From: an uncultured Acidobacteriota bacterium
GTDB taxonomy: Bacteria; Acidobacteriota; Terriglobia; Acidiferrales; UBA7541
Assembly (NCBI GenBank): GCA_963719875.1
Contig: CAVRDJ010000001.1
Location: forward strand, 186-64,185
Direction: 5' to 3'
Length of the DNA stretch: 64,000 bases
Below, piece after piece: positions 24,169 to 40,225 of the stretch (position 1 is its first letter; every line of letters starts with the position of its first letter). A program made the translations under genes and the position numbers. The notes under the pieces are model-generated. The model did no database searches. It had not been told where the DNA came from and was given only the letters and a program-made list of their open reading frames with translations.

Positions 24169-24233
24169 CAGAATCATCTGCCCGCTGCTCAATCTGCTTA
24201 TCTGGACAGCACTCAGAGAGAGCGAGTCGATTC
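24169..24233 (+). pseudogene. second remnant of the split DUF255-like paralog
   Basis: cagaatcatctgcccgctg..c..tc.gcttatct.gacagc.ctcaga.agag.gagt.gatt aligns with 36729-36796, which encodes QNHLPAGQSAYLDSAQKERVDW. The sequence diverges afterwards. Confidence 0.55.
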
Positions 24234-25543: not shown

Positions 25544-25760
25544 GCCGTCCTGTCGATGGGGCGCTTGGCGCCTCCCGGATTGACAGCCTCCGGAGCGTTC
25601 GGAACACCTTGCTGGCAGCTACCCGAATATCTGGTCGACCGCCTTTACCTCGTGTTTTCGTTTTTGGAAATCTATCAGTATCCGACAGGTTGAGAGGCAG
25701 CCTGCGCCTCAACCGTATTCGGAAGGCTGAACGCTGATTCGGTCAATAGGAGAGCGTCGC

Positions 25761-26687
25761 GTGAATAATGTGATCATTATCGGCAGCGGCTGCGCGGGAA
25801 TGACGGCTGCCATTTACGCTGGGCGCGCCAATCTGAAACCTGTGGTGATCGACGGGCTGGAACCCGGCGGCCAGCTTGCGCTAACGACAATGGTTGAGAA
25901 TTGTCCCGGATTTCCCGACGGCATTCTGGGCCCGGACCTGATTGAAAATATGCGCAAGCAGGCGCTGCGCTTCGGCGCGGAATTCAAATCCGGCGCGATC
26001 TCGGACGTCGATCTCAGCAAGCGGCCGTTCAAGATCACCGCGGGTAAACAGACTTATGAAACTCAGGCGCTGATTATTGCCGCCGGCGCGACCGCGCGCC
26101 TCATGGGGCTGGAGTCCGAGCGTAAATTAATCGGCTACGGCGTTTCGACGTGCGCCACGTGTGATGGCTATTTCTTCCGCGGCAAGGATATTGCCGTGGT
26201 GGGCGGCGGCGATTCGGCCATGGAAGAAGCGAATTTTCTTTCGCGGTTTGCCAGCAAAGTGTATCTGGTTCACCGGCGCAGGGAATTTCGCGCCTCTAAA
26301 ATCATGGTGGACCGCGCGCGCGCCAACGAAAAAATTCAATTCGTGACTCCTGTGATCGTCGAAGACATTTCAGACGTGACCAAGGGCGGCGTGGAAAACA
26401 TGACCCTGCGCAACGCGGAGACGAATCAGGCCTCAACGCTTCCGGTGTCGGGAATCTTTATCGCCATCGGCCACGTTCCGAACACCAAGGTGTTTCGGGG
26501 CAAGTTGGACATGGACGAAAACGGTTACCTCATCACACATCACGGCAGCCAGACCAAGATTCCCGGCGTTTTCGCCGCCGGCGACGTGCAGGACCACCAC
26601 TACAAGCAGGCGGTCACCGCGGCAGGCTCGGGTTGCATGGCCGCGATCGACGCGGAGAAATTTCTCGAGATGCGCGCGGACGTCTGA
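25761..26687 (+). CDS. trxB: thioredoxin-disulfide reductase
   Basis: 308 aa from a GTG start with GSGCAGMTAAIYAGRA, the redox-active CATCDG, VVGGGDSAMEEA and GVFAAGDV. Confidence 0.9.
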   Translation: MNNVIIIGSGCAGMTAAIYAGRANLKPVVIDGLEPGGQLALTTMVENCPGFPDGILGPDLIENMRKQALRFGAEFKSGAISDVDLSKRPFKITAGKQTYETQALIIAAGATARLMGLESERKLIGYGVSTCATCDGYFFRGKDIAVVGGGDSAMEEANFLSRFASKVYLVHRRREFRASKIMVDRARANEKIQFVTPVIVEDISDVTKGGVENMTLRNAETNQASTLPVSGIFIAIGHVPNTKVFRGKLDMDENGYLITHHGSQTKIPGVFAAGDVQDHHYKQAVTAAGSGCMAAIDAEKFLEMRADV

Positions 26688-26989
26688 ACTGGCGCACGCT
26701 CTCTGGCAGATAAATCTATAGGGGGGAGCTGTCCATGTCAGGAATGAAAAAGCGTGCTTTGTCATCGCCTTGGCTCATGTCGAGATGCACCGGCCAAATC
26801 GCCCCTGAAAGGGCAGGCGACCCACAAAAACACAAACCAAGCAGAAATTAAATGTGACTCTGTAACTTAGCGTTCCGAGTATCTCGACGCGAGGGTGCTT
26901 GCCGAACCTTCCAGCATTCGTCGATTGGAAAGTCGTTATTTGTAACGGCTTCTTTTGGGGTGGAGTTTCGATCGAACTAAGGAGGCAGG

Positions 26990-29900
26990 ATGAAAAATGG
27001 AGATTTGTGTCCGTACATTGATATTACTCGTCACGATCAAAATGACGAAAAGGTTTACTGCCCACAGGGAGCCTGTAGACCGGTGAAGGTGTGCGACGCA
27101 AGCTTAAGCAAAGCGAGCGTCTTGCTTTTCCTGCTTCTAGTCCTTGCGATCGTTGCACCGACCACGGCTCTTCACGCGCAAGTGTCTGGAGCGACCTTAG
27201 CCGGCACGGTCACAGATCCCTCGGGCGCCGTCATACCAAACGCCGAGTTGTCGATCCAGAACGTGTCCACGGGAGTAACGCGGAAACTGACCACGGATTC
27301 GGCCGGTTTTTACTCGGCTCCCAATTTAATGCCAGCGACGTACGAAGTTATGGTTACGGCGGCTGGCTTCGAGACGACAATTCGAAAGGGAATAACACTG
27401 ACAGTGGGCGCGCAGCAAGTAATGAATATCTCCATGAAAATTGGCGGCTCGACTCAGCAAGTCGAGGTCACGACTGGAGTTTTGGGCGTCGAATTGGCTT
27501 CGTCCGAGATTAGCGGAGTCGTTACTCAGAAGACCGTCGTGGATCTGCCCTTGAACGGGCGCGACTGGACCCAACTTGCCACTTTACAAGCTGGCGTCGA
27601 TTCGCTCGGTTCGGTGCAGACGGATGCCGGCACGAAGGACCGTGCGCGCAGAGGGTATGGCGTGGAACTTTCGATCTCCGGCAGCCGCCCGTCGCAACAA
27701 AACTATCGCATCGACGGCATCAGCGTGAACGATTACGCCAACACCAGCCCGGGAAGCGTTGAAGGCGCAACCCTGGGCGTGGACGCCGTGCAGGAGTTTT
27801 CCGTTCTGACCAACAATTACGCCGCCGAGTACGGACGGACGTCCGGCGGGGTAGTTAACGCCGTTACCAAGTCCGGCGCGAACGATTTCCATGGAAACGT
27901 GTTTGAGTTCTTGCGCAACAGCGCTCTCGACGCCGCCAATTTCATCGATAACGCCAACGGTAACCCCAAGCCTAACTTCGTGAAAAACCAATTCGGCGGT
28001 TCCATTGGCGGTCCGATCAAGAAGGACCGCACCTTCTTCTACGCGGATTATGAGTCGCTTCGCCAAAGCGAGGGAATCACCACGCAGACTTTCGTCCCCT
28101 CGGCCGCTATTCGCGGGATCGGCACTGGCCCGGGAGGTGGACCGGGGCCTTCGACGGTGTGCAGCATCCCGCAGCCGACCTGCACGACCATGACGCTCGG
28201 CCAGTTCGTGGCAAATAATGGGGAGAGGATCCTGCATCCCGACCCTGTAACGGGTATCGACTCATCGGTCGTACCCTACCTCGGCCTATGGCAACTCCCC
28301 AACGCGGGGCTCGTTGGCAACGGCGACCAAGGAATTTACGCCTTTACTGCGGGCGTGTTGACCATAGAAAACTTCGGGAACATCCGAATCGATCACAAGT
28401 TTTCCGAAAAGGATAGTGTGACCGGCACCTACCAGAACGATCAAGCCATCGCGACGCAGCCGGACGCAAACAATGACGTCCTGGCAAACAACCTGACGAA
28501 CCGCCAGCTCATTTCGATTGAAGAGACCCACATCTTCAGCCCGCAATTGATTAACACTGCCCGATTTGGCTTGAACCGCTCCGTGCACACCGGAGGGGGC
28601 ATATCCGCCATCAATCCCCTGGCCGCAAATCTGGCCCTCGGGGAAAGCGCAGGGTCCGATAACCCCCAAATTGACATATTGGCAGGCGGATATAACTCCA
28701 TTCAACCGGGTGTGAATCAGGTAGAAGTCGTGAACTTCTTCCAGAATTCATGGCAAGGCTACGATGACCTGTTTCTGTCCAAGGGAATTCACAGCCTGAA
28801 ATTTGGGTTTGCCGTGGAGAACATCATTACGCTTACCGCCAACCCGGCCCCTGCGGGCGATGTCCAATTTGCGTCGCTGTACGAGGATACGCAACACGGC
28901 GGGTTGCTTCTTAACAGTCCCTTGAGCCTGAATGGCCCGGTAAACACTGTTTTTCCGCAACTCGATTTTCACACGACAATTTTCGGTGGTTACGTCCAGG
29001 ACGACGTTCGCCTGCGACCCACGCTGACGCTGAATCTGGGATTGCGTTACGAAACATCCACCGTGCCGAATGAGGTCAATGGCAGGCTCTCCGCCCTTTC
29101 GTCTCCCTTTAACCAGACCGTGCCGTTTATCGGCCATACGGTTTTCCAGAATCCCACGCGTCGCAACTTTGAACCGCGCGTGGGCTTCGCCTGGGATCCA
29201 TTCGGCAACGGCAAGACTTCTGTCCGGAGCGGCTTCGGATTGTTTGACGTCCTCCCTCTGGCGTATGAATTCGGGCAGTTTGCCACCAACGCCGCGCCTT
29301 TTATTCAGAACGGCTTTATTTCGACCACCTCCGCGACGAACCCATTAGTGCAGGGAGATTTTCCGACCATCGCATTCAACAAATTGGCCGCCAATGTGGC
29401 CCAGGGCCTCAGCGAGCGGTTTCCGTACGTTGAAAATAAGCCGAAGCGCAGCTATGTGTTGCAATGGAACCTCTCCATTCAGCGAGAGCTTTTGCCGGAT
29501 TTAACCGCGACGATTGCGTACGTGGGTTCCCGGGGCATTCACCAGCTGTTCCGGGCCGACGACATCAACGTCCCGCTGCCCACTCTGACGTCTGCCGGTT
29601 ACCTTTTTCCCGCGAGTGGCGCTCCGAAACTGAGCCCCAATGTTGGACAGATCGATACGCTACAGTGGGGCAACGATTCGTTCTACCATGGCTTGGAATT
29701 GCAAGTTACCAAGAAGCTGAGCCAGGGCTTTCAAGTTGGCGGCAGCTACACGTGGAGCAGGGCGATTGACGGAGGCGATGGGTCGATCGCTAGCGACTCT
29801 TTCGTTAACTCAATTCCGAATCTCCTCTTCTTTGCTCCCTCGACCCGGCGCGGGCCTTCCGACTTCAACATAACCCAAAACGTGACCATAAATTTCCTGT

Positions 29901-30481
29901 GGCTCGTGCCCAGCCCGTTTCACGGTGTGGGCGGTAAATTGACGCACGGCTGGCAGGTGGGCGGGATTTTCACCGGTCGGACTGGACTGCCGTTCACTCC
30001 TCTAATCGGTGGCGATCCTCTTGGCCAAGGCAACGCGGGACCGTTTGATTATCCGAATCGGTTGGGGGGCCCAGGTTGCGCTTCCTTGGTCAATCCCGGC
30101 AACAGGGAAAACTATATCAAGACACAGTGTTTCGCGTTGCCGCAGAGCACGCCCGCGATCGCCTCCCAATGCAATCTATTTGGGAACATACCGGGCACCT
30201 GCGCGAATCTGCTGGGTAATGCGGGCCGGAATGTTATCAATGGTCCCGGACAGGCGGATTTTGATTTTTCCCTGGTTAAACAAATAAAGATCAACGATCG
30301 CTTTGGCTTGGAGTTTCGCTCGGAGTTTTTCAATGTAATCAATCACCCGAACTTTAACGCCCCCATCGCCAACAGCGCAATTTTCAATGCGGACGGAACC
30401 ATTCCGGCAAGCCCAGGACAAATTCTCTCCACCTCCACCACGGCGAGAGAGATTCAGTTTGGGTTGAAATTGGCCTTTTGA
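26990..30481 (+). CDS. TonB-dependent receptor with carboxypeptidase-regulatory-like domain
   Basis: 1163 aa with an AAGGAGG RBS. CarboxypepD_reg (ATLAGTVTDPSGAVIPNAELSIQN...ATYEVMVTAAGF), plug (VVDLPLNGRDWTQL) and barrel ending FGLKLAF. Confidence 0.9.
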   Translation: MKNGDLCPYIDITRHDQNDEKVYCPQGACRPVKVCDASLSKASVLLFLLLVLAIVAPTTALHAQVSGATLAGTVTDPSGAVIPNAELSIQNVSTGVTRKLTTDSAGFYSAPNLMPATYEVMVTAAGFETTIRKGITLTVGAQQVMNISMKIGGSTQQVEVTTGVLGVELASSEISGVVTQKTVVDLPLNGRDWTQLATLQAGVDSLGSVQTDAGTKDRARRGYGVELSISGSRPSQQNYRIDGISVNDYANTSPGSVEGATLGVDAVQEFSVLTNNYAAEYGRTSGGVVNAVTKSGANDFHGNVFEFLRNSALDAANFIDNANGNPKPNFVKNQFGGSIGGPIKKDRTFFYADYESLRQSEGITTQTFVPSAAIRGIGTGPGGGPGPSTVCSIPQPTCTTMTLGQFVANNGERILHPDPVTGIDSSVVPYLGLWQLPNAGLVGNGDQGIYAFTAGVLTIENFGNIRIDHKFSEKDSVTGTYQNDQAIATQPDANNDVLANNLTNRQLISIEETHIFSPQLINTARFGLNRSVHTGGGISAINPLAANLALGESAGSDNPQIDILAGGYNSIQPGVNQVEVVNFFQNSWQGYDDLFLSKGIHSLKFGFAVENIITLTANPAPAGDVQFASLYEDTQHGGLLLNSPLSLNGPVNTVFPQLDFHTTIFGGYVQDDVRLRPTLTLNLGLRYETSTVPNEVNGRLSALSSPFNQTVPFIGHTVFQNPTRRNFEPRVGFAWDPFGNGKTSVRSGFGLFDVLPLAYEFGQFATNAAPFIQNGFISTTSATNPLVQGDFPTIAFNKLAANVAQGLSERFPYVENKPKRSYVLQWNLSIQRELLPDLTATIAYVGSRGIHQLFRADDINVPLPTLTSAGYLFPASGAPKLSPNVGQIDTLQWGNDSFYHGLELQVTKKLSQGFQVGGSYTWSRAIDGGDGSIASDSFVNSIPNLLFFAPSTRRGPSDFNITQNVTINFLWLVPSPFHGVGGKLTHGWQVGGIFTGRTGLPFTPLIGGDPLGQGNAGPFDYPNRLGGPGCASLVNPGNRENYIKTQCFALPQSTPAIASQCNLFGNIPGTCANLLGNAGRNVINGPGQADFDFSLVKQIKINDRFGLEFRSEFFNVINHPNFNAPIANSAIFNADGTIPASPGQILSTSTTAREIQFGLKLAF

Positions 30482-30646
30482 GAAACGAGTCGATCAACGC
30501 ACGAGTCCGTGTGCTAGTTGATTAAGATCTGGAGCGATTGCGCGAAGCAGGCATGGCGTGGTCACGGCGGCTAAATAGGCTTCTCCAGGGATTGATTTGT
30601 CGGGAAGAGTACTTGACGACCGTTAAAAATGCCGTAGGGAGAGGAC

Positions 30647-32734
30647 ATGACGAGAAAAAATCGGACCCAGGTTGTGGTCCTCTGCACTGCAATCGCTCTC
30701 ACGCTCGCTGGAGCCGCGGGGTGGTCCCCTGCGTCTCCGGCGAACGCACGTAGTTCTCAAACTGCGTTGGGTCAGTCAGCGCCGGAAATACCCACGGACG
30801 ATCTACAGCGATCGATTAGAATCGACAGTTACACGGAGGTGGCTGACAGCGGGCCACGAAGAGGAGAAAATCTATACTTTTTTAAGTGCTGGATGTGCCA
30901 CAACCAGTATGCGCAGGCAGGGCCTTACTTGAAGGATGTTTACAGTCGCGCGACTCTAATGTCCGGCAAGCCTGTCAGCGATGAAACAGTAAGGGAGCAG
31001 ATCAAGAACGGCGGGCCTTGGATGCCGGCTTTTGGAACGACCTTATCCGATCCCGACATAGCGGATCTGCTAGCTTACATTAAAGAAGGTAAATGCTGCA
31101 TCGAAGGAGAGGAGCTTCCGCCGAATCCCTGGTATCGGGCCGTCGCACACAGGTGGCCGGTCCAGACCGCCGTTGCGGGTGGCGCGAAGGGAATCATACG
31201 CATTTCAAGCGGAGATTCGCCAGAAGGGATCGGTGTGCAGTTGATCGCCCCGAATGGCGTCAGAACTACTGTCTACACCGACGTCGAGGGAAAATACGAA
31301 TTCCCCGAGATGCAGGCAGGTACGTACACTTTGCGGATTCCAACGCCACTGACCTTTAAGCCTTATCGTCGAGATTCGGTCCGAATTGACGGCGCGACGA
31401 AACTCAACGAGATTGTCCTGGATCGAGTTTCCAAAACGGACAGCCTGCCCGCAACCGCTCAGATCAGATCTCAGCTAAGCGGTGCGGAGCTGTTGTGGAA
31501 CCTGCCCGGCACAGGGGAGGAAAAGGCAACTTTCCAAAAAGTATGTTCGCCCTGCCATGAATGGCAACAGATTTTGCGGAACCATTACGATGAGCGTAGC
31601 TGGACGGCAATCGTAGACCGGATGACTCATTACTACAGCGCTCCTCTCGTCGTTCGAATTAAAGGGGCGGCAGTCCTGGGATCGAATGATCAAGACGACG
31701 ACGTCATTGTGAAATGGCTGTCGAGAGTCCGGGGCCCTCAGTCGCAAGACGCACCGTTACGCGCGTTTCCTCGTCCAAGCGGAACCTCCAGTCGGGCTGT
31801 CGTCACCGAATATGAAATGCCTCAATCACTCCTTACACCTCATGATGTCGCAGGCGACTCGAAGGGCAACATCTGGTTTACCAGCCATAAGTCACGATTC
31901 ATCGGCAAGCTCGATCCTCTGACGGGCATCGTGACCGAATACACGGTTCCTCTGACGCCCGGCGCGATGCCTGGGACTCACCGCATCACGGTGGACAAGA
32001 GCGATATTGTTTGGTTTTCAGAACCCTGGGCACACGTTTTAGATAGGCTTGATCCGCGAACGGGGAAAATCACGCGCTTGCCCATAGAAGTTCCCGAGCC
32101 TCTTAATGTTGCGGGATTTAGCAATTTCGCCTTGGCGCCGGACGGTTTCATCTGGGATAACCAGGACAATCAGGTCCGAAAGATTGATTCCGAAACAGGC
32201 AAAATCTTGCGGGAATACCCAAACCAAGTCAAATTCAGTTACGACAACCTGATTTCCGCGGATGGGAAGTATTGGGCGGGGGGCGGGCCCCCTGGATACG
32301 GGAATACAGTGGAGCGCTTAGATCTTCAGACAGGCAAATTGACAGGACTGAACACGGGCAACCATATGGCAACCGCAAAGAGAGGTGGATTTGACCCCTC
32401 GGACAATGCGTGGTTCGGTGGCGGTGACGGCGCGCTCATCGAGCTGAATGGAAATACGGGCCGTATTGTTGAGCATTGGCCTCCGACTCCACCTAGCCCG
32501 CTTACCGATTTCTATGAGGCTATGCCGGACAAGAATGGAGACGTGTGGGCTGCGGTATTACACGGACGCCAGTTTGTGAGGTTTAGTCCCCGAACGTCTC
32601 GGTGGACCGTCTACCAGCTACCGGAGCCGTTTGCGTATGACCGAAGAACTTGGATCGATAATTCCACGGTTCCAGTAACAGTCTGGTACGTAGACTATGA
32701 TGGATATTTGGTCCGCCTCCAACCTTTGGAATAG
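30647..32734 (+). CDS. secreted cytochrome c (two CxxCH motifs) / CarboxypepD_reg-like / Vgb-like beta-propeller fusion protein
   Basis: 695 aa with a signal peptide. Heme motifs CWMCH (with GGPWMPAFG downstream) and CSPCH. A middle Ig-like segment (GVQLIAPNGVRTTVYTDVEGKYEFPEMQAGTYTLRI). Six to seven repeats of the type GNIWFTSHKSRFIGKLDPLTGIVTEY. Confidence 0.8.
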   Translation: MTRKNRTQVVVLCTAIALTLAGAAGWSPASPANARSSQTALGQSAPEIPTDDLQRSIRIDSYTEVADSGPRRGENLYFFKCWMCHNQYAQAGPYLKDVYSRATLMSGKPVSDETVREQIKNGGPWMPAFGTTLSDPDIADLLAYIKEGKCCIEGEELPPNPWYRAVAHRWPVQTAVAGGAKGIIRISSGDSPEGIGVQLIAPNGVRTTVYTDVEGKYEFPEMQAGTYTLRIPTPLTFKPYRRDSVRIDGATKLNEIVLDRVSKTDSLPATAQIRSQLSGAELLWNLPGTGEEKATFQKVCSPCHEWQQILRNHYDERSWTAIVDRMTHYYSAPLVVRIKGAAVLGSNDQDDDVIVKWLSRVRGPQSQDAPLRAFPRPSGTSSRAVVTEYEMPQSLLTPHDVAGDSKGNIWFTSHKSRFIGKLDPLTGIVTEYTVPLTPGAMPGTHRITVDKSDIVWFSEPWAHVLDRLDPRTGKITRLPIEVPEPLNVAGFSNFALAPDGFIWDNQDNQVRKIDSETGKILREYPNQVKFSYDNLISADGKYWAGGGPPGYGNTVERLDLQTGKLTGLNTGNHMATAKRGGFDPSDNAWFGGGDGALIELNGNTGRIVEHWPPTPPSPLTDFYEAMPDKNGDVWAAVLHGRQFVRFSPRTSRWTVYQLPEPFAYDRRTWIDNSTVPVTVWYVDYDGYLVRLQPLE

Positions 32735-32857
32735 TTGGCAAAATGATGATCTCCCGCAATGAGAATGGCAAGCCCTTCTCTGAGGAGAGAGTTGTTGGAT
32801 GTTTTGGATGGCGTGTGCCGCGAGCTAGGGAAATGCTTTGGTTAAACGGGGGCTATT

Positions 32858-34966
32858 GTGCAGAGACGAAGGCATAGTTTTTCGCAGTCCGCAATTCTAT
32901 TTTCTCTGACCATCGTATTCGCTCTGATTGCAGTGGGGGCGGTAAACAGTAGGTCGGCTCGCGGGAACGCGACGCCGCCAGACTCTCAGTCCTCTTCACC
33001 AATATCCACCCCGGGCGACGATCTAAAGCGCTCCTATAGGACCGACCACTACCTCGAAGTCGCGGAAAGCGGGGCGGACCGCGGGGAAAATATTTATTGG
33101 CATAAGTGCTGGGCCTGCCACAACCAATATCAACAGGCAGCGCCTCAGCTGGAAGGCCTTTTCAAGCGCGCCGCTCTGATCACCGGAGTTCCCGTCAACG
33201 AGGAAAATGTAGCCGCGCATATCAAAAAGGGCGGGCCGGGAATGCCCTCGTTTGGCACGACCCTCGCCAACGCCGATGTAGCCGATGTGGTTAACTATCT
33301 GCACAGTGACAAATGTTGCGTTGAGGGAGAATCGCTTCCGGCCAATCCGTGGTACCGATCGCAAACGAATAAATGGACCGTGCAGAGCGGCCTCTCCGGC
33401 GGAGCCACAGGGGTAGTGCGCGTGACCAGCGGTGATTCGCCCGAGGGCGTGATGGTGCAACTCATCGCGCCAAACGGTGTGCGCACCACCGTCTACACCA
33501 ATGAAGACGGAAAATATGAATTCCCAAAAATGCGGTCCGGTGCTTACACGCTGCGGATCGCGAATCCGCTGGAATTCAAACCCTACCGGCGGGATGCCGT
33601 GCAAATCGACGGCTCCGTCAAATTAGAAGACATTGTGCTGGAGCGAATTACCAAGACACGCGCGCTGCCAGCCACGCCGGAAGTGGAATCGCAGCTGAGC
33701 GGCGAGGAAATTCTGTGGAATCTTCCGGGCACAGTGGAGGAAAAAGAGGCGCTGCACGCCACTTGCGCCCTGGGCTGCCATTCCTTCCAGCAGATTTTCA
33801 AGAATCGCTATGACGAGCGCAGCTGGGGCGTGCTGGTGGCACGCATGTTGCATCGCGGAGGCGGTCCGCTGATCAACGATCCGCTGGAGCCGGTGATTGA
33901 GTCGCAGCAGGCCACCGACAGAATGCTCACCAAGTGGCTGGCGCGAGTGCGCGGGCCGGAATCGGTGGATGAGCCGATGTACGCGTTTCCTCGGCTGACT
34001 GGAGAATCCAATCGCGTGGTGGTCACCGAATTCGAGTTGCCGCGGGCGCTGCAAAGCGCGCACGATGTTTACGGAGACGGTAATGGAACTATTTGGTACA
34101 CAAGCCACCTGAGCCGCTTCTTCGGAAAGCTCGATACACGCACGGGCATCGTGACCGAATACCAGACTCCTCTGACCCCAGGCGCGCAGCCGGGCACGCA
34201 TCACGTCTACGTGGAGAAGAATGGCGAAGTGCTCATTTCCGAGCCGTGGTCGCATAAGTTGCTGAAGCTCGATCCGCGAAACGGCGAAATGGCCGAAGTG
34301 CCCGTGGCGGCGCCCTTCCCGATCAACTCGGCGGGCATGGCCGATTTCGATTTGACGCCGGACGGATATGTGTGGGCCAGCATGGGCGGAGGATACGCCG
34401 CCGAAAAGATCGATCCAAAAACAGGGAAGACGGTGCAGAAATTTCCGATGAAGGTTCCCTTCAGCTATGACGGCATCATTTCCCAGGACGGAAATTTCTG
34501 GGCTGGTGGCGCGATTTCCGGGACAACGGGAAACTCCGCCGAGCTGCTGGACATTCGAACGGGTCAAATGCTCAATTTGAATTCCGGAGACCGGCGGTCG
34601 GCCGGGCGCAGGGGCGGATTCGATCCGTTCGGGAATGCCTGGTTCGGCGGCGAGAACGGAACTTTGGTGGAACTGGACGCCGCCGCCAAGCGTATCCGGG
34701 AATTTTATCCTCCCGGGCCAGTCGATCCCTACACAGATCTGTATTCCGTGGAACCGGATAAGAACGGCGAAGTGTGGGGCGGCGAATTGCACGGGCGAGA
34801 ATTTCTGCGATTCAACCCGAAAACGGGCCATTGGACCGAGTACGCCATGCCGGAGCCGTATTCACATTCGCGTGCGGTTTGGGTGGACAAGTCCACGACG
34901 CCGACCACCGTTTGGTACGCTGATTACAGCACCGGGCGCATCGTTCGCATTCAGCCATTAGAGTAG
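32858..34966 (+). CDS. paralogous cytochrome c (two CxxCH motifs) / CarboxypepD_reg-like / beta-propeller fusion protein
   Basis: 702 aa from a GTG start with the same architecture (CWACH, GGPGMPSFG, CALGCH, propeller repeats). It is collinear with 30647-32734 over the full length. Confidence 0.8.
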   Translation: MQRRRHSFSQSAILFSLTIVFALIAVGAVNSRSARGNATPPDSQSSSPISTPGDDLKRSYRTDHYLEVAESGADRGENIYWHKCWACHNQYQQAAPQLEGLFKRAALITGVPVNEENVAAHIKKGGPGMPSFGTTLANADVADVVNYLHSDKCCVEGESLPANPWYRSQTNKWTVQSGLSGGATGVVRVTSGDSPEGVMVQLIAPNGVRTTVYTNEDGKYEFPKMRSGAYTLRIANPLEFKPYRRDAVQIDGSVKLEDIVLERITKTRALPATPEVESQLSGEEILWNLPGTVEEKEALHATCALGCHSFQQIFKNRYDERSWGVLVARMLHRGGGPLINDPLEPVIESQQATDRMLTKWLARVRGPESVDEPMYAFPRLTGESNRVVVTEFELPRALQSAHDVYGDGNGTIWYTSHLSRFFGKLDTRTGIVTEYQTPLTPGAQPGTHHVYVEKNGEVLISEPWSHKLLKLDPRNGEMAEVPVAAPFPINSAGMADFDLTPDGYVWASMGGGYAAEKIDPKTGKTVQKFPMKVPFSYDGIISQDGNFWAGGAISGTTGNSAELLDIRTGQMLNLNSGDRRSAGRRGGFDPFGNAWFGGENGTLVELDAAAKRIREFYPPGPVDPYTDLYSVEPDKNGEVWGGELHGREFLRFNPKTGHWTEYAMPEPYSHSRAVWVDKSTTPTTVWYADYSTGRIVRIQPLE

Positions 34967-34974
34967 GTCATCGT

Positions 34975-35700
34975 CGCCTGGGCCATGCTCGAGCCTTGCC
35001 GTCGTGTAGTTCTGAGCGAACTGGTGCACGGGCGAAGAGACGAACAATCCTGTATCGCCGTTCACGGAATTGGGCAAATTGGGCAGCGGGAAAAACGCAA
35101 GATACGCCAAGACCGATGTACCTCAGTGTGTCGTTAGGTCCGGATTCGGAGCTGCAATAGGACCGCTGACCGGAAATGGGGACCCGTTCACTATGGCGAC
35201 GGGACGGCCGGGTGTACACTGTTCAGCTCCTGAACCTGACGGATGGTTTCGAAATCCCCAAAAACAAACGTCTTGTCCTTTTGAATCGGGCCTCCAGCGT
35301 ACCCGTCGAATTGATTGCGATAGAACGGTGATTTCTGCGGAGCAAAGACGCTGGTGGCATCTAAACCCTCGTCGCGGAGAAACCAGTACGCCGTCCCGTG
35401 AGAATCATTGGTGCCCGGTCTGATGAAGGTATTGATCGCTCCGGTCGATGTCCTTCGGAATTCTGCCGTATAGTTGGCGGTCAGCACTGAAACTTCTTGA
35501 ATCGCGTCCACGCCGAGTTGATCTCCCTGCACGCTACCGAGTGATCCGTTTGAATAGTCTATTACGCTGATTCTGTTGACGCGATAATTGTTCTCCGTGG
35601 GACGGTGGCCGGTAATTGAAAATTGATTTCTGAAGCCGCGATTGCCGCGATTGACTGTGCCGGCGGTCCTGATCTGAGTACAGATACCGATCGTCCCGGG
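34975..35700 (-). pseudogene. internal fragment of a TonB-dependent receptor (plug and early barrel), frameshifted
   Basis: Translation ...RGNRGFRNQFSITGHRPTENNYRVNRISVIDYSNGSLGSVQGDQLGVDAIQEVSVLTANYTAEFRRTSTGAINTFIRPGTNDSHG...NQFDGYAGGPIQKDKTFVFGDFETIRQ is collinear with residues about 210-360 of 26990-30481. A further piece (VLAYLAFFPLPNLPNSVNGDTGLFV) lies in another frame. There is no N-terminal domain and no barrel end. Confidence 0.65.
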
Positions 35701-35808
35701 CTAGCGCAGAATGTGAGTTCCGGTAATTTTGAATCGCGCTGGAATCGCAGAAGCTGTGTCCACGCTGCCACTGGGGGAGAGCCTCGCTACCGTTAAGACA
35801 TCTGTCAT
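35701..35808 (-). pseudogene. 5-prime remnant of a DUF417 gene (35 codons, premature TAG)
   Basis: MTDVLTVARLSPSGSVDTASAIPARFKITGTHILR-stop aligns with MEELITATRPFPSSSAEKGLTIATRLEITGTLILRY of 19579-20064. Confidence 0.55.
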
Positions 35809-35990
35809 GGGGGTGTTTCTTTCTTGTTTGCAAAGTCCATGTGTTTCGAGCACCCATCAAGACGACCATCGGTGCTTTTCTAAGATGAACAGGGATGCGA
35901 AGGGTTTCACCACCGCTGAAACATTTCTTGCAATCGAAATCGGATTGAAACCTTTTCATGCGTCGGCTATCGAAGAGGCAGGAGGAAATT

Positions 35991-36467
35991 ATGAAAACTA
36001 GAAAGACCATCAGCATCCTTGGTTTGTTGCTTGCACTCGCATTCATCCTGCCTATTGCTGCACGAGCAGATGAATACAATCAGGCCACTCAGCTCACCTT
36101 CAGCCAACCCGTCCAGATTCCTGGACATGTCCTGCCAGCGGGAACCTACTGGTTCGTGCTGGCCGATTCGTCGATTGGTGACCGGAACATCATTCAAATC
36201 TTCAACTCCGATCGATCAATGCTGTACGCGACCGTCGGTACCATAAGTGCCGAACGCGCCCAGCTATCCGACCACACGGCGTTCACTTTTGCGGAGCGAG
36301 AATCGACGCAGCCTAGTGCCATCGTGACCTGGTTCTATCCGGGGCGTAAGACCGGCCATGAATTCATATACTCCAGGCAGGACGAGAGGGAGCTTGCCTC
36401 GGCCAAACACGAGACTGTCGTGGCCCGAGCGCCTGCCACGCACCAAACAGCAGTGGCTGCGGACTAA
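35991..36467 (+). CDS. hypothetical secreted protein (paralog of 20247-20723)
   Basis: Same RBS, signal peptide and length as the copy A gene. About 21 substitutions in 158 aa. Confidence 0.7.
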   Translation: MKTRKTISILGLLLALAFILPIAARADEYNQATQLTFSQPVQIPGHVLPAGTYWFVLADSSIGDRNIIQIFNSDRSMLYATVGTISAERAQLSDHTAFTFAERESTQPSAIVTWFYPGRKTGHEFIYSRQDERELASAKHETVVARAPATHQTAVAAD

Positions 36468-36503: not shown

Positions 36504-36543
36504 GCTGGCGGTGGCGAAGTGCCACCGCCAGCATCCGCTTTTG
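36504..36543 (+). terminator. rho-independent terminator
   Basis: Perfect 11-bp stem CTGGCGGTGGC-gaagt-GCCACCGCCAG, followed by catccgctttt. Confidence 0.65.
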
Positions 36544-36629
36544 GGGACACACCGCTATTTTCTCTGGAACATCGTTCTGAGTTATTCATCCGATTTGAAA
36601 CTTTTTCTCGAGCCGGCTATCCAAAGAGC

Positions 36630-37217
36630 ATGAGACATCTCGCCAGAGCCCTTCCACCACCGGTCGCGGTCGTGATGGTCGTCGCCTGTGCGATGGCACT
36701 CGCGGCCGCGGCGCAAGGTAGGGCAAGGCAGAATCATCTGCCCGCTGGCCAGTCGGCTTATCTCGACAGCGCTCAGAAAGAGAGAGTTGATTGGTATCCT
36801 TGGGACAAGGAAGCATTTCGGAAGGCGCGAGAGCGAAATCAGCCCATAATGGTAGACCTTGGTGCAACTTGGTGTCCTTGGTGCAAGCTGATGGAACGAG
36901 ATAGCTACAACGATCCAGAAACCGCTGCCTTCATCGACAGCCACTTTGTCGCGGTTAAAGTTGACTTTGACGCAGATCCAAAACTATCTGCAGAGTTTGA
37001 ACGCGCGCAGGCCTTTGCCAACCTCCCCGCGGGCCTTCCACTGACCGCATTTGTTACACCGGACGGAAGGCTCTACTTCGGCGGAGGCTATTTCCCCAAG
37101 GCAGCAACCGCAGAAAAACCTGCGTTCCGGCAAACACTGGAAGAGGCAAGTCGCATGTTTCGCGATCGGCGAGCAACAATCGAACGCGAAGGCTTCCAAA
37201 TGAAAATCGGAGAATGA
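36630..37217 (+). CDS. secreted thioredoxin-like protein (DUF255 / YyaL N-terminal-like), WCPWC motif
   Basis: ATG at 36630 and signal-like MRHLARALPPPVAVVMVVACAMALAAAAQG. Thioredoxin fold IMVDLGATWCPWCKLMERDSYNDPETAAFIDSHFVAVKVD. Confidence 0.75.
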   Translation: MRHLARALPPPVAVVMVVACAMALAAAAQGRARQNHLPAGQSAYLDSAQKERVDWYPWDKEAFRKARERNQPIMVDLGATWCPWCKLMERDSYNDPETAAFIDSHFVAVKVDFDADPKLSAEFERAQAFANLPAGLPLTAFVTPDGRLYFGGGYFPKAATAEKPAFRQTLEEASRMFRDRRATIEREGFQMKIGE

Positions 37218-37266
37218 ACAATGAAAACGAAGATCGGAATGTTGGCTGCAATTGGTATTCTGACAC

Positions 37267-38389
37267 TAGTGTTCTGTTACATAAATAAGTGACACACGAG
37301 CTTTGGTATGGTACAAGGGCTTATGTTCACTGCGAAAGAGCCGTTTCGATTGCTTGCCGAGGAGCAGACCCATTTGCAGCAACTGCTTCGATCCACGCGG
37401 GTTTCGGCGGGACTGGCCCGCCGCGCTCGGACCCTGTTGCTGTTGGCCGACGGTGTGTCGCTGCGTTATATCCAGACGCAGACCGGCATGAGTCCTCGCC
37501 GCACGTTGCACTGGAAGAAACGCTGGCGGGAAAAGGGACTCGACGGACTGCTGGATGCGCCGCGTGCCGGACGTCCCCGGAAGATGACCGGGGCCAAGGA
37601 GGCCGCCATCGTGGCGGCTACCCAAGCGTCTCCGCCGGGGCCGATCTCTCACTGGTCCACTCGCCGTCTGGCGCGGCGCTGGGGCGTAAGCCACGTCACG
37701 GTCATGCGGGTCTGGCACAAGGTCGGGCTGCAACCGCACCGCCTGAAGCACTACATGGCCAGTCCCGATCCTGATTTTGAGGCCAAGGCGAAAGACATTC
37801 TTGGTCTGTACCTGCATCCTCCGGAAAAAGCAGCGGTTTTCTGCATCGACGAGAAGACCGCCATTCAAGCGCTGGACCGCACGCAGCCCGCCTTGCCCCT
37901 GCGACCGGGACACCCGGAACGACACACCGTCGAGTATGTGCGCCACGGAACGGTCTCGCTGTTCGCGGCCTTGGAGGTGCACAGCGGGAAGGTCCTCGGC
38001 CGTTGCGCGCCCCGCCACACCAGCCAAGCCTTCGTTCAGTTTCTGGATGAAACGGTGGCCACGCATCGACGCAAAACGATCCATGTGATCCTCGACAACC
38101 TCGCGGTTCATAAAACCCCAGCGGTGAAAGCTTGGGCGGCGGCACACCCCAAGGTCCAATTCCACTTCACGCCCACCTACTCCTCCTGGCTGAATCAGGT
38201 GGAAATCTGGCTGGGCATGATCACCCGCGACTGCATCCGCCGCGGCATCTTTCACTCCGTCCCGGACCTGAGCCACCAAATCATGAACTACATCCGGCTC
38301 TACAACCGAACCGCCCAGCCCTTTCGCTGGACCTATTCCAACCCGAAGAAACGCATCCGTGTGTCACCTTCTTCGGTAACGCGACACTA
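37267..38389 (+). mobile_element. IS630-family insertion sequence with TA target duplication
   Basis: Imperfect terminal inverted repeats of about 32 bp: left TAGTGTTCTGTTACATAAATAAGTGACACACG, right (reverse complement) TAGTGTCGCGTTACCGAAGAAGGTGACACACG. TA is present at both ends. It carries a single DDE transposase ORF. Confidence 0.85.
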
Positions 38390-38390
38390 G
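37308..38390 (+). CDS. IS630-family DDE transposase
   Basis: 360 aa with N-terminal HTH/winged-helix regions and a DDE region (FCIDEKTAIQA ... HVILDNLAVHK ... SWLNQVEIW). The stop codon overlaps the right inverted repeat. Confidence 0.9.
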   Translation: MVQGLMFTAKEPFRLLAEEQTHLQQLLRSTRVSAGLARRARTLLLLADGVSLRYIQTQTGMSPRRTLHWKKRWREKGLDGLLDAPRAGRPRKMTGAKEAAIVAATQASPPGPISHWSTRRLARRWGVSHVTVMRVWHKVGLQPHRLKHYMASPDPDFEAKAKDILGLYLHPPEKAAVFCIDEKTAIQALDRTQPALPLRPGHPERHTVEYVRHGTVSLFAALEVHSGKVLGRCAPRHTSQAFVQFLDETVATHRRKTIHVILDNLAVHKTPAVKAWAAAHPKVQFHFTPTYSSWLNQVEIWLGMITRDCIRRGIFHSVPDLSHQIMNYIRLYNRTAQPFRWTYSNPKKRIRVSPSSVTRH

Positions 38391-39245
38391 TTGCGGGTGC
38401 GCAGGCGGGTGAAAATCTACGCCTGAATTCTCATCTGGACTATTCATCGGACAGCGAAGATGGACCGCTGATCACTGGTGACCACATGAACGAAGGCGCT
38501 GTACCTGGTAAGCCGAACTACGTCATTATCTATGGAGAGGGTTGTTTCAATTCGAAGCGGCAGGCACGGCGCACCGTGAGCCTCTACGAGAAGTACAAGG
38601 ACCGCGTGAATTTCGTTGTCGTGGACCTCGATCAGAAACGTTCACCCACGCAACAGCAGCTCGTGAAGCAATATTACCAGGGCTATATACCGCACGTCGT
38701 GGTTCTCGACAAGTCTGGCAAGGCTGTTTACAACTCATCAGGAGAAGTGGACGAATCATCGCTATCAACATTGCTGGACCGTGCATTGGAGTAGCGAGAG
38801 TGGTGGCCTGATTTGGGCCAACTACCTCCCGTAGTTCGGTAGTGCCCCTGCTCACGAGGCAGGTGCGTCCCCCCTCCTATCCCTGCAAAGTGTAACTTTG
38901 GCGACTGTCTCAGATTGGAGTTCACTACACCGGAATCTCTGGCAGTACACCTGCTTTGCAAGCACGTTCAGCCTGCTCGAGAAGCAGCGGCACTCACTGT
39001 CTCTTAAAACCTAGTTCCCCATCCTATTATTCTAAGACAGTTTTTGAGCGCACTTTTCCTATTGGCCATTCAGATAATCGTCCTCGCGTCTTTGGGTCTT
39101 GGCCGTCGTGAGCCCTTGGTCGCAATGTCCATATCGCTCCATCAGTATTACGATTTCAATTCCCCTGCTAGAATGGCCTGAATGATCGCTTGTCCGGTCA
39201 TTCCGCTCACATCTTCACTTATTCCCAACCGATTCGAGAGTGCAG

Positions 39246-40145
39246 TTATTTGCCCGATGTGGCCGCGTGGCGCATGACGTCGAGAACTTCGGAGGTCTGC
39301 CACTCGTTTCCGGGCCACATGTTCGCCACGGTTCCATCCGCGGCCAGCAAGATCGTATTCAAGCTATGTGTGATCTGGTCATTCTGCTCGGAATAGGAGA
39401 GACCAAAACTGCCGGTTAGTTTTTGCAGGTCCGCGGGAGTTGTGGAAACAAAATCCCAGTGCTCGAAACCTTTGGGGTCATGCTCCAGGTACGACAGTCC
39501 ATACTCCCTTAGGACCGGCGGTTTGTCGTATTTCGGATCCAAACTAACGCTGATCAAATGAGTTTTTTCGTAATCCTCGGGATTTTTTGCTAGCTCTTTA
39601 TGGATGGTGGCAAATTCTCTGCTCAGTAGAGGACAATAGTCGGGAAAGGGACACCTTGTGTATATGAGCATGAGAAGAACAATCTTGCCTTTGAATTGGG
39701 CGAAATGCAGAGTCTTGCCATCCTGATTGACCAGTGGCACGTCAGGAACCTTGTCGCCAACCATGAGTACCTGTGGGGTTGGGCCTTCGGCAGGGGCACG
39801 AACGGCTGCTTTGCCGATTACGGTCAAGTGTTCCAACCAAAACTTGCCCGGCTGGTCCACAATTACATCCGCACGGATGACATCCGCTGGCTGAACCAGT
39901 TGAAACCCATCCGGATCCTTCACCGCGTAGGGCATGGTCATCGCTGCCATAAATCCAGGGATGTCGTCATTGTCGATTATGAGTTGCTGGGTGGCGGGTT
40001 GTTTACCGATGACCCGTCCCGTCAAAGTATAGGTTGTCGGCGAATCCTTGCAGCCTAAAAGGAGCAAGGAGAGGCACGTCATGAAGATCAATCTGGGAAA
40101 GCGGAATTTAGATAATTTGTTCATCATTCGGTTGTCGAAGTTCAT
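39246..40145 (-). CDS. lipoprotein: CusF-like copper-binding domain fused to an SCO1/SenC thioredoxin-fold domain
   Basis: Lipobox LLLLGC. The N-terminal domain has the GFMAAMTMPY motif (CusF-like MxMTM). The C-terminal domain has LIYTRCPFPDYCP and the conserved His (QITHSLNT) of Sco proteins. Confidence 0.8.
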   Translation of the reverse strand: MNFDNRMMNKLSKFRFPRLIFMTCLSLLLLGCKDSPTTYTLTGRVIGKQPATQQLIIDNDDIPGFMAAMTMPYAVKDPDGFQLVQPADVIRADVIVDQPGKFWLEHLTVIGKAAVRAPAEGPTPQVLMVGDKVPDVPLVNQDGKTLHFAQFKGKIVLLMLIYTRCPFPDYCPLLSREFATIHKELAKNPEDYEKTHLISVSLDPKYDKPPVLREYGLSYLEHDPKGFEHWDFVSTTPADLQKLTGSFGLSYSEQNDQITHSLNTILLAADGTVANMWPGNEWQTSEVLDVMRHAATSGK

Positions 40146-40225
40146 TTCAGTAATCTTCCTAAGAAGGTGATCTTCGGAAACTCTCGCCCACTTGTAACGC
40201 CAAAGTTCCCGAATTCAGTCCAGCC

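Follow-up and report, generated by a model that had tools for sequence, protein, structure and literature searches.

Two adjoining genes in a 64,000-nucleotide stretch of the genome of an uncultured soil Acidobacteriota bacterium, hereafter the window, raise the question of what a periplasmic protein combining c-type haems and a β-propeller in a single chain might do.

Gene pair and domain organization

Paralog 1 (30647..32734, 695 residues) and paralog 2 (32858..34966, 702 residues, GTG start) are exact ORFs on the + strand, at the positions and lengths reported in the first-pass annotation. Both reading frames open just 9-12 nt upstream of the starts, which are therefore well defined, and in paralog 1 the start is confirmed and an N-terminal hydrophobic segment is present. 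BLASTP analysis reports an end-to-end collinear alignment of the two proteins (53% identity, E = 0). The best explanation of their shared architecture is that both are predicted Sec-exported periplasmic dihaem c-type cytochromes, in which a signal peptide, a class-I cytochrome c domain, a Cys-Cys pair, an Ig-like domain and a second haem domain precede a seven-bladed propeller of the fold of virginiamycin B lyase (Vgb). With a pTM of 0.81, the AF2 model of paralog 1 points to Ig, haem-2 and propeller domains that are fixed relative to one another. The genes had been called tandem paralogs and they do literally adjoin, but they fall in two distinct old clades whose members are not usually linked, and the pair therefore represents old paralogs lying side by side instead of a recent local duplication.

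Haem domains, Cys-Cys pair and Ig-like domain

The N-terminal domain returns Pfam Cytochrome_CBB3 hits above the curated cut-off of 27 bits in paralog 1 (49.3 bits, residues 70-147, 30854..31087) and paralog 2 (39.1 bits, residues 73-150, 33074..33307), and cytochrome c6 structures match that of paralog 1 in a PDB search. The verified haem motifs are CWMCH (residues 81-85, nt 30887-30901) and CWACH (residues 84-88, nt 33107-33121), and the candidate axial ligands are M126 (nt 31022-31024), which is invariant, and M129. The signal peptide and Met-ligated class-I cytochrome proposed earlier are thus borne out. The linker following this domain contains a vicinal pair, Cys150-Cys151 (31094..31099, motif GKCC[VI]EGE) in paralog 1 and residues 153-154 (nt 33314-33319) in paralog 2, which the earlier description did not mention. 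The pair is invariant in alignment A1 and occurs in every long-family ORF with an intact N-terminus (81 loci, with three N-terminally truncated ORFs devoid of the region), while the short subfamily described below lacks it. The ensuing Ig-like β-sandwich, also anticipated in the first-pass annotation, is assigned to CarboxypepD_reg in paralog 1 (34.1 bits, residues 173-258, 31163..31420) and paralog 2 (36.7 bits, residues 176-261, 33383..33640), above the cut-off of 32.3 bits, and AF2 models it as β-strands in paralog 1 with pLDDT values mostly between 79 and 95.

Next comes a helical domain (residues 265-375, 31439..31771 in paralog 1; 33659..33991 in paralog 2) that returns neither a significant Pfam match nor a PDB fold match (best E = 4.8). 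It harbors the second haem site, CSPCH (residues 300-304, nt 31544-31558) with Met326 (nt 31622-31624) in paralog 1. A second CxxCH had been reported for both proteins; the site is conserved in both, but the motif of paralog 2, CALGCH (residues 303-308, nt 33764-33781), is of the CxxxCH type, with M330 as candidate ligand. This variant is kept in all 18 other ORFs of the orthologous clade of paralog 2, 76-95% identical to paralog 2. Across 41 sequences sharing 54-96% identity with paralog 1, C81/C84/H85/M126 and C300/C303/H304/M326 never change, and the second set remains invariant in 42 out of 42 sequences down to 24% identity. Since the motif residues are invariant across relatives, their chance occurrence is ruled out, and the strict retention of the haem-2 site with its Met makes haem and propeller an obligate pair. 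As judged from their motifs, both haems look six-coordinate (His/Met), which would suit electron transfer and not catalysis at the haem.

The propeller and its central pocket

The C-terminal region forms the propeller (residues 383-695, 31793..32731 in paralog 1; residues 386-702, 34013..34963 in the collinear paralog 2), an assignment resting on AF2, Foldseek, sequence periodicity and conservation. The AF2 model of paralog 1 displays seven four-stranded blades over residues 384-693, and the sequence repeats every 45 residues. The six to seven Vgb-type repeats counted from the sequence are thus confirmed in their fold, with the number of blades being exactly seven. The best Foldseek matches in the PDB are the Vgb structures 2z2n, 2z2o and 2qc5 (target-normalized TM 0.77-0.83, 20-22% identity), and phmmer returns Vgb from the PDB with E = 1.7e-22. 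With Vgb structures (2z2n, 2z2o, 2z2p, 2qc5) the paralogs share seven blades of roughly 42-45 residues over ~300 residues, the motif G.I.EY.lP....P.gi..d.dG.lWft, and conserved functional residues located where the innermost strand of a blade begins. The profile scores fall short: Pfam Vgb_lyase, whose gathering score is 50, reaches 46.3 bits in paralog 1 and 35.4 bits in paralog 2, the NCBIfam Vgb(A)/Vgb(B) models do not exceed 38 bits against cut-offs of 600, and Vgb-like sequence is kept in blades 1-3 only. Other hits are DUF6923 in paralog 2 (32.2 bits) and weak SGL/gluconolactonase matches.

Vgb, a Mg2+-dependent C-O lyase, is cytoplasmic and consists of a single domain, whereas the paralogs are predicted to be exported and comprise five modules with two haem-c sites. 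The Vgb catalytic set (Y18, H228, E268, H270, E284) is not conserved: collinear mapping matches none of the five positions, and the best blade rotation matches three (H399, H445, E459), of which H445 (19/42 superfamily sequences) and E459 (8/42) are not conserved. As none of the seven rotations reproduces the set, identity with a streptogramin lyase is rejected, and with it the lyase option of the first-pass annotation. At the per-blade position of the Vgb catalytic residues, the family instead has, in paralog 1 numbering, H399 (41/42), Y532 (36/42), R579 (40/42), Y623 (40/42) and R666 (35/42), which together with D400 line what is, from sequence conservation, a candidate pocket distinct from that of Vgb. 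Only one His of the propeller is fully conserved, a multi-His metal site is missing, and the proteins bear no Pfam PQQ, GSDH or haem-d1 signature, which leaves the propeller with no assignable redox cofactor.

A superfamily mostly from soil bacteria

The two proteins belong to a superfamily of at least 5,765 clusters, mostly from soil bacteria. Three parts make up its conserved core: the Ig-like domain of CarboxypepD_reg type, the propeller and, between them, a novel monohaem-c domain, whose CxxCH or CxxxCH motif is followed ~22 residues later by a Met. The Terriglobia subfamily, to which paralogs 1 and 2 belong, has gained a class-I cytochrome c at the N-terminus together with the invariant Cys-Cys pair. 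Short proteins of ~550 residues are true homologues, 24-30% identical over residues 175-695 of paralog 1; they are devoid of the N-terminal cytochrome and keep the haem-2 CxxCH...RM signature and the central propeller residues. They are annotated as "carboxypeptidase regulatory-like domain-containing protein", "hypothetical protein" or, automatically, "virginiamycin B lyase"; paralogs 1 and 2 are not that antibiotic-cleaving enzyme. Searches of Pfam, NCBIfam, PDB sequences and folds, source names and the literature returned no characterized member, in line with the earlier statement. Genomes hold 3-5 dispersed copies of the family, and one superfamily representative carries a fused lactonase propeller.

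Genomic neighbourhood

Directly upstream of paralog 1, on the + strand, a gene (26990..30481) encodes a TonB-dependent-receptor-like outer-membrane protein of 1163 residues (Pfam OMP_b-brl_4 579 bits, CarboxypepD_reg 75.9 bits, weak Plug), and the 165-nt gap between the two contains no terminator-like site on the + strand. We treat this receptor, one of six in the window, as context with a putative functional link to the paralogs. A receptor lies beside the family gene in 14 out of 81 loci of the long family and in about 7 out of 84 of the short family (reported as about 10-17%), a 4-5 fold enrichment over the background of those loci, and mostly on the same strand. The link suggested by the first-pass annotation is therefore real but weak, as most family copies stand alone. 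Neighbourhoods vary and share no conserved partner gene across family loci; with most copies alone, no pathway is implied. The window is also rich in periplasmic thiol-redox and copper-handling genes.

Putative function

We share, with moderate confidence, the earlier proposal of a periplasmic redox enzyme. The best overall explanation, which we put forward tentatively, is that the proteins are oxidoreductases that bind a substrate in the propeller pocket and use the haems as an electron relay. The substrate, a small polar or anionic molecule, would enter the central top-face pocket lined by His399/Asp400 (blade 1), Tyr532 (blade 4), Arg579 (blade 5), Tyr623 (blade 6) and Arg666 (blade 7), kept across the superfamily, where a non-covalently bound cofactor may also reside. 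Haem 2 and then, in the Terriglobia subfamily, haem 1 would carry electrons between pocket and respiratory chain. A substrate pocket coupled to a haem electron path would make the proteins periplasmic dehydrogenases or reductases, not streptogramin lyases. The receptor enrichment, the fusion to a lactonase propeller and the gene cluster at locus L087 described below count for this reading; the missing propeller cofactor, the six-coordinate look of the haems and the variable neighbourhoods count against it.

Such wiring of haem c to a catalytic propeller is found in cytochrome cd1 nitrite reductase (NirS) and in quinohaemoprotein alcohol dehydrogenases. In periplasmic NirS, an N-terminal class-I cytochrome c feeds a catalytic centre in the middle of the propeller. 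The paralogs resemble it in joining a cytochrome c domain to a β-propeller, but NirS has eight blades and binds haem d1, while the paralogs have seven and bear no d1-type signature; they also possess an additional Ig-like domain and a predicted second covalent-haem domain. Quinohaemoprotein alcohol dehydrogenases and six-bladed PQQ dehydrogenases (sGDH/CcPDH-like) are likewise periplasmic propellers wired to c-type cytochromes, with eight or six blades; in the paralogs, the cytochrome is N-terminal and the Cys-Cys pair lies outside the propeller.

The best-surviving alternative, though not a likely one, is a periplasmic electron carrier or adaptor whose haems serve another enzyme. Its propeller and Ig-like domain would then be non-catalytic docking surfaces, possibly for a dehydrogenase or for the CarboxypepD_reg domain that a TonB-dependent receptor has in the periplasm. 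Electron-transfer cytochromes typically have His/Met haem motifs of this kind, and CarboxypepD_reg domains are common to receptors and family. A PQQ dehydrogenase lies downstream of the family gene at locus L001, and at L087 a short-family member clusters with a receptor, a GMC oxidoreductase, a gluconate-2-dehydrogenase subunit 3 (Gluconate_2-dh3) and a polysaccharide deacetylase, no separate cytochrome gene being called among the intervening genes. However, a central polar and charged ring kept down to 24% identity resembles a ligand or active site more than a docking surface, no partner gene is conserved, and substrate diversification accounts better for the many diverged paralogs within a genome.

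A narrower oxidoreductase reading, unlikely in this precise form, is a quinohaemoprotein-like dehydrogenase, in which the pocket Arg, Tyr and His would non-covalently bind PQQ or a different cofactor of organic or tetrapyrrole type. Oxidation of a sugar, alcohol or aldehyde would take place there, and the electrons would leave via the haems. Residues of the Arg/Tyr/His/Asp type bind the PQQ carboxylates and act as base in PQQ propellers, and all four kinds are present in the pocket; 8-bladed PQQ dehydrogenases also possess a vicinal Cys-Cys pair beside PQQ. The lactonase-propeller fusion and the carbohydrate-type gene cluster point the same way. Against it stand the seven blades, the missing PQQ and GSDH matches, and the Cys pair itself, which lies in the linker that follows the first cytochrome domain and is missing in the short subfamily. 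Soil bacteria, Acidobacteria among them, commonly possess six-bladed PQQ propellers onto which c-type cytochromes dock, sometimes encoded within carbohydrate-utilization loci, and in fungi the partner is a b-type cytochrome (bioRxiv 10.64898/2026.07.10.737718); their abundance in soil bacteria also favors this version.

It is improbable that the propeller is a non-redox lyase or hydrolase of Vgb-like or lactonase-like chemistry with only structural or regulatory haems. Vgb is its best sequence and structure match, the SGL/gluconolactonase hits and the three-position rotation lean this way, and the fold supports varied chemistry: the C-terminal propeller of CylK, which performs the cylindrocyclophane alkylation, is Vgb-like and seven-bladed, has the Vgb polar catalytic residues replaced, and reuses the fold for a different reaction at a domain interface (PMC8916777). 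CylK, likened to the paralogs by its described fold and not by sequence, differs in lacking haem and in having an N-terminal domain that binds Ca2+. The failed collinear mapping, the two unconserved rotation residues and the low NCBIfam scores weigh against a lyase or hydrolase, and absolute conservation of the haem site together with the gain of a second cytochrome places electron transfer at the centre. Least probable of all is a periplasmic reductase that would use electrons from the haems to free metal from receptor-imported chelates, such as ferric siderophores, bound in the pocket, an analogy drawn from the enriched receptor adjacency, the Tyr, His and Arg typical of siderophore binding and the thiol-redox and copper-handling genes of the window, since most copies lack a neighbouring receptor, no cargo has been assigned to acidobacterial receptors of this type, and no iron-regulation or siderophore genes lie near the family genes.

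Returning to the periplasmic oxidoreductase, the many diverged copies per genome and the variable second-shell residues of the pocket suggest that the paralogs would be specialized for different substrates, some of which may be delivered by the adjoining TonB-dependent receptors.

Domain architecture of the two proteins

The ORFs 30647-32734 (+) and 32858-34966 (+) are intact and encode proteins of 695 and 702 residues, hereafter paralog 1 and paralog 2. The former starts with ATG and the latter with GTG, the frames being open for just 9-12 nt upstream, and the two proteins align end to end with 53% identity. Both begin with a basic and then hydrophobic segment, visible by eye and in a hydropathy scan, which we read as a putative Sec-type signal; covalent attachment of haem c requires export. 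Pfam analysis reports a Cytochrome_CBB3/Cytochrom_C domain above the curated cut-off (residues 70-147, paralog 1 numbering being used throughout; PF13442, 49.3 and 39.1 bits in paralogs 1 and 2 against a cut-off of 27), which matches cytochrome c6 in the PDB. Its haem motif is CWMCH in paralog 1 and CWACH in paralog 2, and M126 is invariant within a GGPxMP motif. With a CxxCH motif, a candidate distal methionine and a profile score above the cut-off, this domain is predicted to be a class-I c-type cytochrome. It is followed by a CarboxypepD_reg domain (residues 181-250; PF13620, 34.1 and 36.7 bits against a cut-off of 32.3), modelled by AF2 as an Ig-like fold of seven strands (residues 173-258, pLDDT mostly 79-95). 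The signal peptide, class-I-like cytochrome c and Ig-like segment proposed in the first-pass annotation are thus borne out, the two domains by Pfam and the signal by inspection and hydropathy.

The C-terminal half displays a plain periodicity of ~45 residues. The Pfam profile of virginiamycin B lyase (Vgb), PF24684, returns 46.3 and 35.4 bits, under its cut-off of 50, and phmmer against the PDB reports virginiamycin B lyase with E = 1.7e-22 through four repeat-wise alignments. The AF2 model, computed on a 41-sequence alignment (pTM 0.81, mean pLDDT 77), comprises an N-terminal cytochrome domain of low confidence, built without haem, the confident β-sandwich at residues 173-258, a helical domain (residues 271-361), and seven four-stranded blades (residues 384-693). 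In a Foldseek comparison with the PDB, the best matches are the structures of Vgb (2z2n, 2z2o, 2qc5, and 2z2p; target-normalised TM 0.77-0.83, 20-22% identity), followed by generic WD40 propellers, and no solved structure extends beyond the propeller. The C-terminal region is therefore a Vgb-type propeller as first suggested, and the earlier count of six to seven repeats can be narrowed to seven blades.

Haem-c sites and a vicinal cysteine pair

C81, C84, H85, and M126 (haem 1) as well as C300, C303, H304, and M326 (haem 2) are invariant in the 41-sequence alignment, as are many propeller residues, confirming that the haem motifs are conserved among homologues. When the alignment is widened to 42 sequences, down to 24% identity, only C300, C303, H304, and M326 are invariant besides glycines and threonines. 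The first-pass annotation assigned two CxxCH motifs to each protein, which is correct for paralog 1 and for haem 1 of paralog 2; the second motif of paralog 2, CALGCH, is a CxxxCH. Decay of this motif can be rejected: the 18 other ORFs of the paralog 2 clade (76-95% identical to paralog 2) all carry CALGCH or CGLGCH, and other subclades exhibit CASGCH, CGSGCH, CATGCH, and similar motifs, so that CxxxCH is a maintained variant.

The haem-2 domain alone returns nothing above cut-off in a Pfam scan, the best hits being DUF1924 (E = 0.005) and Cytochrome_CBB3 (E = 0.11). Its model, an apo form of moderate confidence (pLDDT 73) with which this negative should be read, yields nothing better than E = 4.8 by Foldseek against the PDB. 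Having neither a significant Pfam match nor a PDB fold match, this domain, conserved throughout the superfamily, appears to be uncatalogued and new to both databases. An NCBIfam match to SorB at residues 290-334 (E = 2e-4, 21 bits against a cut-off of 93) falls far below threshold, and we take it as generic cytochrome similarity. At L085, a homologous locus, a second short-family paralog (14294-15943) lies ~4.5 kb from the queried one and has a weak precomputed match to PF09098, the haem-binding domain of quinohaemoprotein amine dehydrogenase; the domain-only Pfam scan of the haem-2 domains of the window returned no PF09098 match.

A feature overlooked by the first-pass annotation is the vicinal pair C150-C151 within the motif GKCC[VI]EGE (window positions 31094-31099 and 33314-33319), which is invariant in the 41-sequence alignment and throughout the long subfamily, and which the short subfamily lacks. 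It could form a strained redox-active disulfide, or a site for a metal or a thiol-bound substrate.

The propeller centre and comparison with known enzymes

Vgb, which linearises streptogramin B via C-O elimination, shares with both paralogs a seven-bladed propeller of ~300 residues. It is a cytoplasmic, single-domain protein, whereas the paralogs possess an N-terminal signal-type segment and four further modules, and neither of them reaches the Vgb profile cut-offs (50 bits in Pfam; 600 bits in NCBIfam, where the Vgb(A)/Vgb(B) scores are at most 37.6). For residue comparison, a Vgb(A) sequence was taken from an Enterococcus plasmid. We take its catalytic and Mg2+-site residues to be Y18, H228, E268, H270, and E284, in blades 1, 6, and 7, a list reportedly originating from Korczynska et al. 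in 2007. All five are found at the expected positions of the recovered sequence; three of them share one per-blade position, after a proline at the start of the innermost strand (GPYGI, RPHAI, EPHGI), and H270A is named as an inactive variant in a PDB title. Substrate and Mg2+ are bound by polar side chains of blades 6 and 7 (PMC8916777).

In hhalign global and HMMER profile alignments the repeats lost their register, family blades 1-4 being paired with Vgb blades 4-7; equivalent positions were therefore tabulated for all seven blade rotations. None of the five Vgb residues is matched in the collinear mapping, and the best rotation matches three (H399, H445, and E459), of which H445 is kept in 19 and E459 in 8 of the 42 superfamily sequences. 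The Vgb catalytic set is thus not reproduced under any rotation, which argues against the lyase option of the first-pass annotation. The central positions are instead occupied by H399 (41/42, together with D400), Y532 (36/42), R579 (40/42), Y623 (40/42), and R666 (35/42). The fold is Vgb-like, and the active site is not: the centre has a different polar, cationic pocket. A precedent for the reuse of the Vgb fold in other chemistry is CylK (PMC8916777). A multi-histidine copper site of the N2O-reductase or thiocyanate-dehydrogenase type is rejected, because H399 is the only propeller histidine conserved across the superfamily.

While Vgb is nearest in fold and set apart by its catalytic residues, the nearest enzymes in function are cytochrome cd1 nitrite reductase and the quinohaemoprotein/PQQ dehydrogenases, which connect haem c to an active site in a propeller. 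The cd1 enzyme carries an eight-bladed haem-d1 propeller after its cytochrome c, and the PQQ-dependent dehydrogenases are either eight-bladed quinohaemoproteins or six-bladed proteins of the sGDH/CcPDH type, as opposed to the seven blades of the paralogs. Pfam and NCBIfam analyses report no cd1-type match in the paralogs, and the Pfam scans gave no match to the PQQ and GSDH profiles (PF01011, PF13360, and PF07995). The paralogs are hence assigned to neither the Vgb, the cd1, nor the PQQ class, on catalytic residues for the first and on blade number and profiles for the others.

A large family with misleading labels

A search of 5.8 billion proteins returned hundreds of full-length homologues with 60-96% identity, named c-type cytochrome at NCBI and, automatically at JGI, virginiamycin B lyase, streptogramin lyase, or mono-dihaem cytochrome c. 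The full scan of 1.84 billion representatives (50% identity) reports 9,666 hits at E ≤ 0.001 and 229 at E ≤ 1e-30. Many proteins of 540-610 residues match only residues ~175-695, with ~30% identity; they consist of the Ig-like domain, the haem-2 domain, and the propeller, and are devoid of the N-terminal cytochrome. All short relatives inspected in full keep the CxxCH, an RM ~22 residues downstream, and the propeller motifs PHD, PRRG, and PYD. A short-form profile search finds at least 5,765 clusters (90% identity) at E ≤ 1e-10, all of which are named either carboxypeptidase regulatory-like domain-containing protein, hypothetical protein, or, automatically, virginiamycin B lyase. As these relatives lack the N-terminal cytochrome and retain the rest, the superfamily core consists of the Ig-like domain, one haem, and the propeller, to which the subfamily of the window appears to have added the class-I cytochrome c and the Cys-Cys pair. 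Haem 2, invariant in the 42-sequence alignment, and the propeller accordingly make up an obligate pair.

Two distant relatives, P0181 and P0255, exceed the PF24684 cut-off (86.5 and 78 bits). In a single representative, P0122 (1060 residues), a seven-bladed lactonase propeller (PF10282, 83.6 bits) is fused N-terminally to a full-length long-family protein; this fusion may hint at lactone or sugar-acid metabolism, or be an artefact of assembly or gene calling. NCBIfam holds no family for the long or the short form, and a full-text literature search found no paper on either. Neither these sources nor the homologue names provide a characterised member, in agreement with the first-pass annotation, and the family is visible in databases yet uncharacterised and partly mislabelled.

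Genomic context

A scan with one genome per species identified 79 loci, nearly all in MAGs of Acidobacteriota/Terriglobia, and single genomes often hold 3-5 family copies on different contigs. Ten loci in SMAG-series MAGs labelled Verrucomicrobiia, Saccharimonadales, Patescibacteria, or Rugosimonospora (L017, L022, L024, L036, L038, L045, L063, L066, L072, and L081) carry copies that are 52-65% identical to paralog 1 and resemble those of Acidobacteriota MAGs; these contigs are probably mis-binned or mislabelled.

One homologous locus, L005, is 94% identical in nucleotides to the window over a collinear block of 10.85 kb (24314-35156) that spans the FNR-like gene, TrxB, the receptor, and both paralogs; the genome of the window is accordingly closely related to this Acidobacteriota MAG. 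L005 is the only locus with two family genes in tandem, and L009 the only one with a receptor between two family genes. The paralogs are adjacent and collinear, as noted in the first pass. A recent local duplication is nevertheless rejected in view of their identity of just 53% and of the orthologues of paralog 2, which are normally single genes unlinked to paralog 1-type genes; the pair thus represents two old paralogs side by side. Just downstream, 35191-35532 (-) encodes a truncated receptor fragment, 46% identical to residues 257-365 of the intact receptor, and is followed by an IS630-type DDE_3 transposase gene (37308-38390, +). Positions 37270-38383, nearly all of this gene, have no counterpart in L005, whose flanks are also rearranged, suggesting that the border of the shared block has recently undergone insertion and rearrangement.

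The upstream receptor (26990-30481, +) is a TonB-dependent-receptor-like protein of the acidobacterial type (OMP_b-brl_4, 579 bits; CarboxypepD_reg; weak Plug). Of 81 long-family loci, 14 have a receptor-like gene no more than 1 kb away, on the same strand in 12 of them, and receptors occupy 8.6% of the adjacent slots against 1.7% of the other flank slots. Among 84 short-family metagenome loci, a receptor occupies ~7 of the 108 sides that could be observed, and again it mostly shares the strand of the family gene. The receptor link drawn at first therefore stands as an enrichment that is real but modest, the loci being phylogenetically related and most copies having no adjacent receptor. Moreover, the window holds six receptor-like genes with an N-terminal CarboxypepD_reg domain in 64 kb (9282-13028, -; 26990-30481, +; 40226-42562, -; 46543-49311, -; 49970-53440, -; 57988-60600, +), so that chance adjacency is likely in this genome. 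A promoter and terminator scan of 26500-36000 gave counts equal to the shuffle expectation, with none in the two intergenic gaps, and is uninformative on co-transcription.

Beyond receptors and second family copies, the recurrent neighbours in the 81 long- and 84 short-family loci reflect just synteny among related genomes (among them AhpD-like, DinB-like, peroxiredoxin, MBL-rhodanese fusion, and HD-domain proteins for the long family; Zn ABC transporter genes for the short). An NHL/SGL-like propeller protein of ~360 residues, in some cases with a GCC motif of its own, is encoded near family genes in 12 long- and 5 short-family loci (e.g. L004 7782-8897, L020 11505-13046, and L157 8899-9975); its side and strand relative to the family gene vary. 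At L087 (140-10650), a short-family gene is co-directional with genes for a receptor, a TPR protein, a GMC oxidoreductase, Gluconate_2-dh3, a polysaccharide deacetylase, and an MBL-fold hydrolase, and its product might replace the cytochrome subunit of a gluconate-2-dehydrogenase-like complex. Together with the P0122 fusion, this cluster gives weak hints of sugar or lactone metabolism.

In the window, periplasmic thiol-redox and copper-handling genes flank the paralogs on both sides (18430-26687 and 36519-45453): DUF1223 (18430-19263), an AhpC/TSA-DsbD_N fusion (22498-23304), an FNR-like reductase (24749-25543), and a thioredoxin reductase-like protein (25761-26687) upstream, and a DsbH-like thioredoxin (36519-37217), an SCO1/SenC-CusF fusion (39246-40145), and a P-type ATPase (43441-45453) downstream. 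Further away are a sigma-54-dependent transcriptional activator with two GAF sensor domains (54002-56185, +) and, adjoining a receptor-like gene, a radical SAM/SPASM-domain protein of 461 residues (60831-62216, +) that may be a peptide-modifying maturase.

Proposed function and significance

The analysis establishes the modular layout, an export signal at the sequence level, two conserved His/Met-type haem-c sites, the obligate pairing of haem 2 and propeller, a conserved central pocket unlike that of Vgb, and the multi-copy nature of the family. We propose that a polar or anionic substrate, alone or together with a cofactor, occupies the propeller pocket, and that electrons would be relayed between this pocket and the periplasmic electron-transfer chain through haem 2 and then haem 1. 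The paralogs would then act as periplasmic oxidoreductases, each on substrates of its own, some of which the adjacent receptors perhaps import. Of the periplasmic redox or lyase enzyme acting on an imported substrate first suggested, only the redox part is retained, as a tentative reading whose likelihood we place slightly short of even.

Its weak points are that no redox cofactor can be assigned to the propeller and that both haems look six-coordinate. The main rival is a specialised electron carrier or adaptor in which the propeller only docks partners. The oxidoreductase reading also has two possible versions that are more specific. A quinohaemoprotein-like enzyme that binds an organic cofactor is supported by the kinds of pocket residues, by the Cys-Cys pair, and by a soil precedent of PQQ propellers with cytochrome partners (bioRxiv 10.64898/2026.07.10.737718); the other version is a metal-chelate reductase acting on receptor cargo. 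A haem-decorated lyase or hydrolase is the least likely, given the catalytic residues.

Extending the oxidoreductase reading to the whole superfamily is more doubtful, and we consider it rather unlikely in full. The superfamily would be an unrecognised class of periplasmic oxidoreductases in which a new monohaem-c domain, for which neither Pfam nor the PDB offers a match, is joined to a seven-bladed Vgb-fold propeller bearing a His/Asp-Tyr-Arg-Tyr-Arg active site. Present as several paralogs per genome in abundant soil bacteria, these enzymes would oxidise or reduce varied imported small molecules, and in the Terriglobia branch a second cytochrome would have been acquired, along with a Cys-Cys pair that is redox-active or handles a metal.

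The family is large, ecologically prominent, and of unusual architecture, and does not overturn existing knowledge. The virginiamycin B lyase label is wrong, and surveys of soil metagenomes can overcount antibiotic-resistance genes because of it. Many soils are dominated by Acidobacteriota and their neighbours, much of whose periplasmic biochemistry is unassigned. If these proteins are haem-wired propeller enzymes, they would constitute a new catalytic module beside cd1 nitrite reductase and the quinohaemoproteins, and would point to an unknown route by which electrons from periplasmic substrates enter the respiration of soil bacteria.
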